Of a stretch of 64,000 nt of DNA, positions 42,997 through 54,673 are shown piece after piece. Location: NCBI GenBank assembly GCA_963804995.1, contig CAWDSK010000002.1, positions 288,001 to 352,000 of the forward strand, written 5' to 3'. The DNA comes from an uncultured Acidobacteriota bacterium. GTDB lineage: Bacteria; Acidobacteriota; Terriglobia; UBA7540. The position numbers and the translations under genes are program-made. Position 1 is the first letter of the stretch, and each line of letters begins with the position of its first letter. The notes under the pieces were generated by a model. That model was not told the origin of the DNA. It was given only the letters and a program-made list of their open reading frames with translations, and ran no database searches.

Positions 42997-44909
42997 GTGC
43001 GCCGGGATAAACCGGCAGAAAGCAGAGAATGAAAATTTCTCACGAGGAAGGAGCAGCGATCCACTCGGCCCCGAGTTTTGCGCTGGGCGTCGTGAGGCGC
43101 ACGGTGAAGCGTAAACAGGGGAATAGGTGGGCTGGGTATTGAGCTTCGAAAATGTCCAATCAGGACGCCGACGTTTTCAGACTAAACGGAAGGCAACATG
43201 AGGCCGGGACGCCAACGCGAGTTCCGGCACAGTCCTGCGTAGTCGTAGACCCCAGACACGCCTAGACACTTTCTGCACGAGAACCGGGAGACCTCGGAGG
43301 CGCCGGCCGCCGTAGATCGTGGCCGGACGGCGGGAAAAGGCGATGGCCGTACAGCCCGCCTGCACGCTTTCGAGGAGTCGGACAGCGGAACAGTACCGAT
43401 GAATCATTTGAACAAAGACGGGAAGCCGTTGGCGGAGAATGAGGAGGGAAGGCCGCTGATCAAGGAGAACACCCGTTGGCCTAACACGCACCCGACACAG
43501 AGCGGGGCACGCGTGTCCCAGGGACTCGCGGGTGTGCGGAAAGCCGCGAAGGAACACAGGGAGATGAAGTTCACGGCCTTGCTCCACCACTTAACGGTCG
43601 ATCTGCTGCGGGAAAGCTTTTACGCCTTGAAGCGAAAAGCTGCACCGGGAGTAGACGGCATGACGTGGCAGGAGTATGAAAGCGGGCTGGAAGGTCGACT
43701 CGTCGATCTGCACAGCCGGGTCCACCGCGGAGCATTCCGAGCGAAGCCCTCGCGAAGGGCGTATATCCCGAAAGGCGACGGGCGGCAACGTCCGTTGGGG
43801 GTTGCGGCACTGGAGGACAAGATCGTCCAACAGGCCGTGGTCACCATCCTCAATGCGATTTACGAGGAAGACTTTCTGGGCTTCTCGTATGGCTTTCGAC
43901 CGGGATGCAGCCAGCATCAAGCGCTGGACGCGCTCTCGTACGCGCTCACGGTGAAGCACGTGAACTACGTTCTTGACGCGGACATTCGTGGATTTTTCGA
44001 TTCGATATCCCACGAATGGATGCTCAAGTTCGTGCAGCATCGCGTCGCCGACCCCCGGATTCTCCGGCTCATCCAGAAATGGCTGAAAGCCGGGGTGAGG
44101 GAGGAAGGCGAATGGTCGGAGACGGAGATGGGTACGCCACAAGGGGCGGTGGTCTCGCCCCTGCTGGCGAATATCTATCTGCACTACGTCTTTGACCTGT
44201 GGGTGCAGGCGTGGCGCAAGAAGCACGCCCGGGGAGACGTGGTCGTGGTGCGGTATGCCGACGATACGGTCCTTGGATTCCAATCGCAGACGGAAGCCGA
44301 CCGCTTTCTGGAGGATTTCCGGGAGCGGGTGGGGAAGTTTGGATTGGAACGGCATCCTGACAAAACGCGCCGGATCGAGTTCGGGCCGTTTGCCGAACTT
44401 TACCGGAAACGGAGAGGAGAAGGTAAGCCGGAGACGTTCGACTTTCTGGGCTTCACGCATATCAGCGGGAAGAACCGGAGGGGGCAATTTACCGTGAAGC
44501 GGAAGACGATCAGCAAGCGCCTGCGGGGGAAGTTGCAGGAACTCAAGCAACAACTCCGGCAGCGTCGGCACGATCCCATCGCGGATACGGGTAAATGGCT
44601 CCGGTCGGTCGTGCAAGGCTACTTCAACTATCACGCGGTACCGGGAAACCTCGACCGCCTGCGAATCTTTCGGGAACGGTTGACCCGACTGTGGCGAACA
44701 CAACTGCGTCAACGCAGTCAACGCCACCGCCTCAACTGGGACCGACTGGGGAAGCTTGCGGCCTGCTGGTTGCCTGCTCCGCACGTTGTGCATCCTTGGC
44801 CATCCCAACGGTTCGCCGCCACACATCCGAGATAAGAGCCGTATGCGCTAACCAGCGCACGTACGGATCCGTGCGGGGGGTACCGGGTAACCGGTATCCC
44901 TACCGCAAC
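42997..44909 (+). mobile_element. Complete group II intron (1913 nt)
   Basis: 5' GTGCG; domain V gAGCcgtatgcgctaaccagcgcacgtacggatc; domain VI ending ccctaccgcAAC; RT ORF inside. Confidence 0.93.
43399..44835 (+). CDS. ltrA: Group II intron reverse transcriptase/maturase (no endonuclease domain)
   Basis: AAPGVDG, RPLG, SYGFRPG, GTPQG, RYADD, FDFLGF, GYFNYH; exact start uncertain. Confidence 0.95.
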   Translation: MNHLNKDGKPLAENEEGRPLIKENTRWPNTHPTQSGARVSQGLAGVRKAAKEHREMKFTALLHHLTVDLLRESFYALKRKAAPGVDGMTWQEYESGLEGRLVDLHSRVHRGAFRAKPSRRAYIPKGDGRQRPLGVAALEDKIVQQAVVTILNAIYEEDFLGFSYGFRPGCSQHQALDALSYALTVKHVNYVLDADIRGFFDSISHEWMLKFVQHRVADPRILRLIQKWLKAGVREEGEWSETEMGTPQGAVVSPLLANIYLHYVFDLWVQAWRKKHARGDVVVVRYADDTVLGFQSQTEADRFLEDFRERVGKFGLERHPDKTRRIEFGPFAELYRKRRGEGKPETFDFLGFTHISGKNRRGQFTVKRKTISKRLRGKLQELKQQLRQRRHDPIADTGKWLRSVVQGYFNYHAVPGNLDRLRIFRERLTRLWRTQLRQRSQRHRLNWDRLGKLAACWLPAPHVVHPWPSQRFAATHPR

Positions 44910-52469: not shown

Positions 52470-53516
52470 TTACACCGCCGCCGCGGCGGCATTCATCGTG
52501 GCGCGCGTTCCCTTCCAAATATCGAGATAAGGTTTAAGTTCCTGCATCATGGCTTTGAACTGGGGCAGGCTGAGGGACTGCGCGCCGTCGCTCATGGCCT
52601 TTTCCGGGCAGGGGTGGACTTCCACAATCAAGCCGTCCGCGCCCACCGCCACAGCGGCGCGCGCCAGGGCCGGCACCAGGCTCTGCCGGCCCGCGGCGTG
52701 ACTGGGATCGACGATCACCGGCAGGTGCGTGAGCTCATTCAGCACCGGCACCGCGGAGATATCGCAGGTGTTGCGCGTGGCGGTCTCAAAGGTGCGGATA
52801 CCGCGCTCGCAAAGGATGATGTTGGGATTGCCGTGCGCCGTGATGTACTCCGCCGACATCAACAGCTCCCGGATGGTCGAGCTCATGCCGCGCTTCAGCA
52901 GCACCGGGCGCCGGCATTTACCCAGCGTCTTGAGCAGCGCGAAGTTCTGCATGTTGCGCGCGCCCACCTGCATGATGTCAGCGTACTCGGCGATCAGCGG
53001 AACGTCGGACTCGCTCATCACCTCCGTGACGATGGCGAGACCCGTAGCCGCGCGCGCTTTGGCCAGCAGCCTCAGCCCGGCTTCTTCCATTCCCTGAAAA
53101 TCATAGGGGGAGGTGCGGGGTTTGAACGCGCCTCCGCGCAGAATCTTGCCGCCTACCGAGGCCACGAATTCCGCCGCGGCCATGATTTGCTTCTCACTCT
53201 CCACTGAGCACGGTCCGGCCATGACCACGAACTCGTCACCCCCGATGGAAACTCCGTTAATAGGAATCCGCGTCCGCTCCTGCTTGAACTCCTTGCTCAC
53301 AAACTTATAGGGCGATGAGATTCGCATGGCGCTGGCAACCCCCGGTGCAACTTCGATCGCTTCCAGACACTCGGTCACATCACCCATTCCGATCACGCCA
53401 ATCACCACGCGTTCCTCGCCTTGGATCGAGTGGACCTTGTAACCGAACTCGCGGATGCGTTCGCAAACATGCTCGATCTGTTCCTTGGTGGCATTCGGTT
53501 TCATTGAGATGATCAT
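52470..53516 (-). CDS. aroF: DAHP synthase (type I-beta, with N-terminal regulatory domain)
   Basis: [40 protein letters not shown]; start MIISMK at 53516. Confidence 0.95.
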
Positions 53517-53532
53517 TGCCTTGTCCCCCCTG

Positions 53533-53566
53533 AAAACACAAAAGCCCACTCCATTTCGAGTGGGCT
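53533..53566 (-). terminator. Intrinsic terminator of the aroF attenuator
   Basis: AGCCCACTC-gaaatg-GAGTGGGCT followed by TTTGTGTTTT, about 17 nt before the aroF start. Confidence 0.85.
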
Positions 53567-53609
53567 GGCCTTTCTAGAATCCCTTTTTTCTTTTCAGACC
53601 AACGCCACC

Positions 53610-53681
53610 CTACTGGATCGGAGCAAAGCTCCAATACCAGTAGCTAAAGTACCTAAACGAATTGGCGTAGGTCCCGTACAT
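53610..53681 (-). CDS. Aromatic-rich leader peptide MYGTYANSFRYFSYWYWSFAPIQ
   Basis: Manual translation; 10 of 23 residues aromatic (5 Tyr, 3 Phe, 2 Trp); lies upstream of antiterminator/terminator and aroF. Confidence 0.85.
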   Translation of the reverse strand: MYGTYANSFRYFSYWYWSFAPIQ

Positions 53682-53690
53682 CAGAGGGGC

Positions 53691-53719
53691 AGTATACCGC
53701 AAGCGGTGAGAGGGCGCAA
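53691..53719 (-). promoter_or_regulatory. Sigma-70 promoter of the leader-aroF transcript
   Basis: TTGCGC-17 nt-TATACT, 9 nt before the leader ATG. Confidence 0.65.
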
Positions 53720-53750
53720 GATTTCTGTGGGTTTAGGAGTGACTCATTTT

Positions 53751-53915
53751 GAGGTGCCACGGGCGTCCGAAGGTGTGAAGAAATAGTATTTTTACCGCGG
53801 AGGCGCTGAGACGCAGAGAAAAGGACCTTTATTTTCATTCCTCTGCGCCTCAGCGTCTCTGCGGTAAGGAGGTTTTAGACGATTTTTTCACACCTTCGGA
53901 CGCCCGTGGCACCTC
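53751..53915. repeat. Composite palindromic element (28-bp outer inverted repeat with an inner cgcagag-type hairpin pair)
   Basis: gaggtgccacgggcgtccgaaggtgtgaa ... ttcacaccttcggacgcccgtggcacctc. Confidence 0.75.
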
Positions 53916-53968
53916 GCATTGGGGGGGGTACGGCCAGTACACCTTGGACGTGTTAAAATAGGCGAACC

Positions 53969-53999: not shown

Positions 54000-54673
54000 G
54001 CGAGTCAAGTGTATCGACGGTCCGGGTGTGGTGAGCGGGGGAGGGGAGCCCCTCAGCATTACCCTCTTCCCGCTCACTTACATCCCGGAAACTCCCCGGA
54101 AACCCGTTCGGCGGTCCCACCAATCTGTTCATCGGGTCTCTATAACATCTTGGTCGCTGATGGCCAGCATTTCCGCCTAATTTGTTTCCGTCTTAATCAC
54201 GGCTCCTTCTGATGCTTGAACCACATGCAGAAGCAACCTTGATGTTGGGGGTCTGCACCAGAACCCCAGTTGCGTCCATGATGAATTGGGCAAGGCAGCA
54301 GGTCAAGAGGTTCAGAGGGGAGAGATGAAAATAGTTCGGATGGCTATACAATCCCTAGTAGCTTTTTGCTCTGCGTACCTAGATATTGTATGTCCTTGTG
54401 ATCTACCCTGCCCCTAGTGGTTCGAGCCCCTGGGCCCCGCGCTTCGGCACTCTTTACATCCAGGTCCACTGTTTTTCAAGTCGGCATTATCTCCGACTGT
54501 AGAATCTCCTTCCAGTGGCAGGCGCCTGAACACCCGGAAAGCAAAGTCATCAGAGGGCCGTGCCCGCCCAGGCTCGTCCAAATTACGCCCATAAGGACGG
54601 GTGACGATCTGCGGCTCCGCCGCTTGCTGTGCGGAAAGGCTGCGCCTTTCCGTGGCACGCGTGATCTAACCGA

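Follow-up and report, generated by a model that had tools for sequence, protein, structure and literature searches.

The window analysed here is a 64,000-nucleotide stretch of one contig from an uncultured acidobacterium. On its minus strand lies aroF, encoding a type Iβ DAHP synthase, preceded by a short leader region with a predicted promoter, a small open reading frame (uORF) and an intrinsic terminator (Table 1). The aroF protein scores 496 bits against the NCBIfam model NF006421 (cut-off 335), is also over the cut-off of TIGR01361, and matches the PDB entries 1rzm, 3pg9 and 4grs over its full length; it carries the N-terminal extension seen in Thermotoga-like enzymes. Its closest named relatives are in assemblies labelled Terriglobia or Acidobacteriota, at 87–90% protein identity. 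In the ORF map aroF is the last gene on its own strand and adjoins a convergent permease gene, and it is therefore likely to be transcribed as a single gene.

Table 1 Features of the aroF leader and of neighbouring elements in the window
Feature	Position	Strand	Basis or remark
aroF, type Iβ DAHP synthase, 348 aa	52470..53516	-	NCBIfam and PDB matches
-35 box TTGCGC (predicted)	53714..53719	-	Sequence and conservation in homologues
-10 box TATACT (predicted)	53691..53696	-	9 nt upstream of uORF start
Leader uORF MYGTYANSFRYFSYWYWSFAPIQ, 23 codons	53610..53681	-	ATG at 53681, TAG ends at 53610
Segment 1, protector arm within uORF	53663..53673	-	Pairing potential with 53607-53597
Candidate pause hairpin (inner hairpin)	53610..53643	-	Minimum-energy fold; over the Tyr-Trp-Tyr-Trp-Ser-Phe codons and stop
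Segment 2, antiterminator 5' arm	53596..53610	-	Begins at final base of stop codon
Segment 3, antiterminator 3' arm	53558..53571	-	Overlaps terminator left arm
Intrinsic terminator, 9-bp stem and imperfect U-tract	53533..53566	-	Stem 53566-53543, U-tract 53542-53533
Long nested inverted repeat	53760-53920		Between upstream RNA and aroF promoter
Upstream structured RNA, about 300 nt	54271-53970	-	Just upstream of aroF promoter
Promoter boxes of upstream RNA	54306-54301, 54283-54278	-	
Terminator of upstream RNA	53999-53977	-	
Group II intron fragment	43032-43252	+	Rfam RF02005, 170 bits

The first-pass annotation of this DNA had described a promoter with TTGCGC and TATACT boxes separated by 17 nt, a near-leaderless ORF of 23 codons (five Tyr, three Phe and two Trp), and a terminator with a U-tract just before aroF. 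All three are present as described. The terminator was recovered independently by a terminator scan, and the promoter boxes are retained in homologues. The linker between uORF and terminator is 43 nt, and a purine-rich ribosome-binding site lies between the terminator and the start of aroF at 53516. An alternative TTG start for the uORF, giving 30 residues, was discarded on account of its overlap with the promoter.

The promoter does not appear in a consensus promoter scan of the window, its -35 box matching the consensus at three of six positions. Among 88 homologous leaders, searched for promoter boxes with a loose regular expression, 82 have a -10 box 7–12 nt upstream of the uORF start, and 67 of these 82 have TTGC at -35. 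None of the 88 has a Shine-Dalgarno-like word upstream of the uORF, while 81 of the same loci have one upstream of aroF (using a slightly wider pattern). Because the -10 box is so close to the start codon and there is no Shine-Dalgarno-like word, we infer that the uORF transcript is leaderless or nearly so, and that its translation would be of the leaderless type.

An NCBIfam scan of the leader peptide gave no match. The covariance models of Rfam gave no match to the leader at gathering score, and only sub-threshold, chance-level matches at E values up to 10. Metatranscriptome contigs from three runs, compared at 80% likeness, include none over 53404-53739, which is evidence neither way.

The DNA on the far side of the promoter contains two further elements. 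The separate structured RNA just upstream is kept in at least eight same-genus loci and is predicted to form two long hairpins, with two-sided changes at 11 of 51 predicted pairs. It has no Rfam match, and its core 17-mer has no exact match in 100 other genomes of the class. Near-identical contigs covering 54009-54266, with the flanks uncovered, were found in three metatranscriptome runs from two studies, a hint that this RNA is abundant. No match to 6S RNA was found in the genome (which is 92% complete), and the predicted fold of the upstream RNA is not the single rod of a 6S-like RNA. The nested inverted repeat that follows gives chance matches to microRNA models and partial matches to unrelated contigs, and is likely to be a repeat element. 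Elsewhere in the window is a fragment of a group II intron.

A second DAHP synthase, 54% identical to the first, is encoded in the genome. It stands last in a trpC-F-B-A cluster (G000:C5:195027-200045), where it is preceded by a short chorismate-mutase-like ORF; trpE, pheA and tyrA are separate genes. The trp gene names were assigned by reading the sequences, without a family scan. A scan for a leader plus terminator found none at the second DAHP synthase and trpC cluster, or at trpE, pheA or tyrA, and a covariance model of the leader found no second copy in its own genome. A -10 box, an aromatic-rich uORF and a terminator occur together before just one of 4770 heuristically called genes, namely aroF; in the same control, 375 genes have an aromatic-rich uORF alone and 14 have one with a -10 box.

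Alignment of relatives, proposed in the first-pass annotation as a check, does reveal a conserved aromatic-rich uORF. A full aroF orthologue with upstream DNA was obtained from 21 of 24 same-genus genomes, and all 21 loci keep the layout: an aromatic-rich ORF of 21–23 codons starting 9 nt past the -10 box, followed beyond its stop by the same segment and then by the same terminator. A wider pool of 110 aroF loci was reduced to 103 distinct loci (including the window) by removing six duplicates and one locus without upstream DNA. A uORF, defined as 10–45 codons with at least four and at least 20% aromatic residues, is present in 88 of the 103, and 85 of the 88 also have the terminator, bearing in mind that these loci and genomes are related and hence are not independent samples. 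Among the carriers are records with the names Bryobacterales, Bryobacteraceae and Acidiferrales, and the aroF proteins compared range down to some 64% identity.

The 15 loci without a passing uORF are of several kinds. Six have no leader, and have a -10-like box immediately before aroF (L023, L048, L050, L053, L059 and L088). In two, aroF follows a pheA-like gene (L026, L027), and two more (L028, L029) lack a passing start but have an aromatic-rich frame and a terminator. In L064 and L067 the leader has been deleted between promoter and terminator, so that the terminator directly follows the -10 box, and the leader of L073 is decayed. Premature stops occur inside the aromatic block both in L073 and in L074, and L064, L067, L073 and L074 thus form a natural decay series. 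The remaining two are L080, which is truncated, and L089. In a protein tree (FastTree, with no formal test) the losses are scattered in several separate places among the carriers. An inverted repeat, ACACCGC-N-GGTGGTG, is conserved upstream of the aroF promoter in six loci, four of which have lost the attenuator (L048, L050, L053, L088) and two of which keep it (L103, L104). It is possibly a transcription-factor site that has replaced attenuation.

A covariance model (R1) built on 62 leaders was used to search 150 other genomes of the class at an E value of 1e-4. It matched 37 of them: 18 of 21 in the genome's own family, 14 of 21 in family f6, three of 21 in f7, one of six in f8 and the single genome of f72. 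Families f2, f3, f4, f5, f9, f10, f70 and f71 gave no match at this threshold, which does not show that leaders are absent there, because divergent leaders were seen by direct reading (L024, L028, L029).

Codon statistics were calculated for 87 leaders, leaving out L074 with its premature stop. Of the leader codons, 17.6% are for Phe, 11.9% for Tyr and 7.7% for Trp, against 4.0%, 2.8% and 1.6% in the ORFs of the genome, which amounts to 4.4-, 4.3- and 4.8-fold enrichment. The enrichment is specific to the reading frame: aromatic codons take a share of 37% in the leader frame, against 7.6% and 5.9% in the two remaining frames. There are about 5–10 aromatic codons per leader. Phe is found in all 87 leaders, Trp in 84 (three lack it), and five lack Tyr; all three residues are found together in 79. 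At aligned columns Phe, Tyr and Trp substitute for each other. UUU accounts for 73% of leader Phe codons, compared with 37% genome-wide.

In 76 of 83 loci the last aromatic codon starts 14–25 nt ahead of segment 2. The position of the stop codon, by contrast, floats relative to segment 2, from 22 nt inside it to 8 nt before it. What is kept is the spacing that a stalled ribosome would need, and the uORF thus appears from these patterns to be under selection as codons.

We now turn to the RNA structure. The leader as a whole folds with z = -5.05, and none of 200 shuffled sequences was equally stable. In this genome the predicted energies are -15.5 kcal/mol for the protector (segment 1 with segment 2), -20.7 for the antiterminator (segment 2 with segment 3) and -17.4 for the terminator. 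Pairing and covariation were counted on 62 of the 85 leaders, near-duplicates having been thinned by hand. The terminator is paired in 98% of alignment cells, and its covariation exceeds that of all 500 shuffles. The protector is paired in 73% of cells, with two-sided changes at eight of its ten pairs in the 62 sequences; protector and inner hairpin together are paired in 68.8%, again with covariation above all shuffles, and the inner hairpin by itself in 62.7%. The antiterminator, 53596-53610 with 53571-53558, is paired in 83.7% of cells, compared with 33–48% for partners slid along the sequence. Its covariation is not above that of shuffled alignments (42–270 of 500 reach it), because its core is nearly invariant. 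Thus, of the covarying stems that the first-pass annotation looked to relatives to supply, the terminator and the protector with its inner hairpin stand out from shuffles but the antiterminator does not. An alignment-free comparison also bears on the latter: the duplex of a leader's own segments 2 and 3, anchored on motifs, is stronger than cross-species duplexes in 65 of 83 cases. (A comparison in which the duplex was optimised within a window, giving 74 of 84, was discarded as biased.) The pairing of the segment after the stop with the left arm of the terminator, which had been proposed as the antiterminator, is possible by its predicted energy, and in most leaders the own partner is favoured over foreign ones.

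Folding of the alternative structures, also suggested earlier, was carried out with the ribosome modelled as a mask extending to 12 nt past the A site. When the ribosome stands on the stop codon, full-length folds favour the terminator in 85 of 85 leaders. When averaged over ribosomes on aromatic codons, however, the antiterminator is favoured at equilibrium in only 35 of 85, and the remaining leaders would need a kinetic switch. In this genome, read-through is favoured with the ribosome at codons 12–16, which include Phe12, Tyr14, Trp15 and Tyr16, and at codon 18, while Trp17 is borderline.

As only 35 of the 85 switched in full-length folds, co-transcriptional snapshots were added, in which the RNA is folded before the right arm of the terminator has been made. 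With the ribosome on aromatic codons these form the antiterminator in 84 of 84 leaders; with the ribosome at the stop (and the same 12-nt mask) it is lost in 67 of 84 and survives in 17. The antiterminator also forms in snapshots with the ribosome at early, non-aromatic codons, and folding alone therefore cannot single out the aromatic codons.

In naked RNA, equilibrium folds predict termination in 74 of 85 leaders, but not in this genome, and only 22 of 84 naked snapshots have the antiterminator below 0.5. In this genome the naked RNA adopts the antiterminator rather than protector plus terminator, the protector losing to the more stable antiterminator. The protector of the first-pass annotation is therefore a conserved and covarying pairing among homologues, but is not the predicted winner in the naked RNA of the genome in which it was noted.

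On the basis of the conservation, the frame-specific aromatic enrichment, the fixed spacing and the folding with a modelled ribosome, the leader is very probably a ribosome-mediated transcription attenuator of aroF, of a leaderless kind, as had been suggested at the outset. The features of a classical attenuator (codons for the end products, a terminator, a mutually exclusive antiterminator and a suitable ribosome geometry) can all be recognised as predicted elements of the sequence. We envisage that transcription would start 1–3 nt upstream of the AUG and that a ribosome would load without a Shine-Dalgarno site. When an aromatic aminoacyl-tRNA is short, the ribosome would be delayed on the aromatic codons; this is predicted to leave segment 2 available for pairing with segment 3, so that no terminator forms and polymerase enters aroF. 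When aromatic tRNAs are ample, the ribosome would reach the stop and cover segment 2, the terminator would form, and the RNA would end near 53535. Judging by the codons, tRNA-Phe, tRNA-Tyr and tRNA-Trp could all feed the switch. Phe is probably the strongest input, and there is about an even chance that all three amino acids act.

It may be that only one or two of these inputs, Phe and perhaps Tyr, matter, and that it is chiefly the hairpin which preserves the codons for Trp and Arg. Such a reading falls within attenuation and is not an alternative to it, and we would place its probability a little below one half. Phe alone is universal in the leaders, and UGG and CGG exchange at a position that is paired in the inner hairpin; moreover the aroR leader of C. 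glutamicum encodes Phe-Tyr-Phe, yet Tyr is summarised as being without effect on transcription there (PMC11802643). However, Tyr and Trp are enriched to the same degree as Phe, and Trp is the commonest residue eight codons upstream of segment 2 (50 of 82 leaders). It is also relevant that trpE, the trpC operon and pheA showed no leader plus terminator in the genome scan, which leaves the aroF leader as the only candidate of the strict type for an attenuator of this pathway in the genome.

Other readings replace the charged tRNA as the signal, or remove the signal altogether. The nascent peptide could itself be the sensor, arresting, in the manner of TnaC with Trp, when a free aromatic amino acid or a pathway metabolite binds in the exit tunnel. 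In many leaders the pattern aromatic-Arg-aromatic-Trp does recur, and a Pro is conserved four codons ahead of segment 2. But leader length ranges from 14 to 27 codons with no invariant residue column, so that the alignment offers no invariant residues at a fixed distance from a stall site such as TnaC would lead one to expect; the aromatics interchange and the stop floats; and the predicted effect of stalling is to switch on a biosynthetic gene, as fits the sensing of shortage and not of excess. We regard arrest as very unlikely. A general slowing of UNN decoding, through tRNA modification by MiaA/MiaB or through ribosome stress, would be sensed by the same codons, given that those for Phe, Tyr and Trp all start with U, and loss of MiaA is described as slowing Tyr and Trp decoding and raising trp attenuation in P. 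aeruginosa (PMC13434334). It may act as a secondary input, but that it outweighs aromatic supply is highly improbable: among the enriched Ser codons AGC/AGU predominate (55%) over UCN, UUA/UUG Leu codons and Cys codons are rare, and the genes controlled belong to the aromatic pathway. Finally, the leader could have no regulatory role, being a remnant, a constitutive damper, or a small protein with a job of its own. The decayed and deleted leaders among relatives, and the several clades without a leader, are what this would predict, but the frame-specific enrichment, the fixed spacing and an alternative pairing conserved to about 64% aroF identity are not, and neither the sequence nor the length of the peptide is conserved as would be expected of a protein. 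This we find barely credible.

Ribosome-mediated attenuation of aroF therefore remains the preferred reading, and it can be compared with known systems. The classical enterobacterial leaders are led by Shine-Dalgarno sites. The leaders trpL, pheL, hisL, thrL and ilvL share a logic of 1:2, 2:3 and 3:4 helices, with control codons for the end products of their pathways, and leaders with several inputs at a shared first step are represented by thrL (Thr/Ile) and ilvL (Ile/Val/Leu). The acidobacterial leader resembles all five in its predicted helices and its control codons for pathway end products. None of these five classical leaders is known to be placed at a DAHP synthase gene, whereas the leader described here is.

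The closest parallel is in C. glutamicum, where a Phe-Tyr-Phe leader peptide is reported before aroF (Mentz 2013, PMC4046766). This leader, named aroR, is reported to respond to Phe and not to Tyr (Neshat 2014, as summarised in PMC11802643). Going by these descriptions, the two systems share a leader peptide with aromatic codons and an attenuator directly before a DAHP synthase gene; they differ in phylum, and in that aroR has only its Phe-Tyr-Phe codons while the acidobacterial leaders have the larger aromatic block described above, usually with Trp. A second parallel is uORFC-13-1, a predicted uORF with an intrinsic terminator found only before aroF, with 24 representatives from Acholeplasma and environmental DNA (Brewer 2021, PMC8632094). 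It shares this arrangement with the leader described here, but by its description it has a ribosome-binding site and a Phe-coding run of U, with no Tyr/Trp block described (PMC8632094). The text supplement of that article contains no Acidobacteria terms. For Vibrio and Thermus, putative attenuators derived from a database have been listed ahead of DAHP synthase-tyrA operons (PMC1173090), and Shewanella aroF is listed as an attenuator candidate (PMC2659441). The accessible parts of PMC4833913, PMC2965389 and PMC3082878 do not describe the element, and their supplements could list it. In the literature searched, we found no description for Acidobacteria of an aromatic aroF leader or of its Trp component; the attenuator surveys of Vitreschak (2004) and Lopatovskaya (2010) and the Merino database could hold a prediction. 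The earlier remark that no such element was known in this lineage is thus upheld for the literature searched, but aromatic attenuation of aroF as such is known in Corynebacterium and predicted in Acholeplasma. The new points are the lineage, an RNA family that no Rfam model matches, and the Trp codons; the concept and the mechanism are already known.

Related leaders may occur more widely in the phylum. A phylum-wide search with the leader model gave weak matches (E values of 1e-6 to 1e-2) in 31 of 150 genomes. Of these, 27 loci were examined, leaving out L126 and L139, and 15 downstream proteins were subjected to a family scan. Aromatic leaders precede genes of the pathway in 16 of the 27 loci. 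Four have Trp/Phe-rich leaders before DAHP synthase, all in one genus; 11 have Tyr/Trp-rich leaders and terminators before genes resembling anthranilate synthase (trpE), several with Tyr beside Trp; and one has an Ala/Phe/Tyr leader before a gene resembling chorismate mutase/prephenate dehydrogenase (tyrA). The trpE-like and tyrA-like proteins score below the curated cut-offs. Leaders of these last two kinds come from other Acidobacteriota classes (L117, L120, L121, L123–L125, L127, L129 and L132–L135). In a further two loci (L136, L137), short Cys-rich ORFs with terminators precede a NirA-family sulfite reductase gene and cysH. These are candidate cysteine attenuators to judge from their sequences, and recall the polycysteine leaders described for mycobacteria. 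L144 has a short ORF and terminator before gltB (the large subunit of glutamate synthase), with no obvious control codons. The remaining eight loci are unrelated terminators.

Common descent of these leaders with the Terriglobia leader is possible. The fullest interpretation would be that a single leaderless uORF acts as a three-input OR gate for the charging of tRNA-Phe, tRNA-Tyr and tRNA-Trp where the shikimate pathway begins, and that it belongs to an old scaffold found throughout the Acidobacteriota, re-coded and moved among aroF, trpE and tyrA-like genes, with similar-looking Cys-rich leaders ahead of genes of sulfur reduction. We put this forward tentatively, as an idea somewhat more apt to be wrong than right.

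The mechanism is a textbook one, and our understanding of attenuation is unchanged by it. The work does yield an alignment for a new RNA family, together with a small ORF that is missed by family libraries, and the leader would provide a compact sensor of aromatic shortage that could be used in reporter work. A survey from 2010 noted a function for almost none of the attenuators predicted in Acidobacteria (PMC2965389). The aroF leader gives the Acidobacteriota, which are abundant soil bacteria, a concrete and testable regulatory element. With them, the lineages having a leader peptide at DAHP synthase would number at least three and, should Trp count, theirs would be the first single leader found in the literature searched that reads Phe, Tyr and Trp together.
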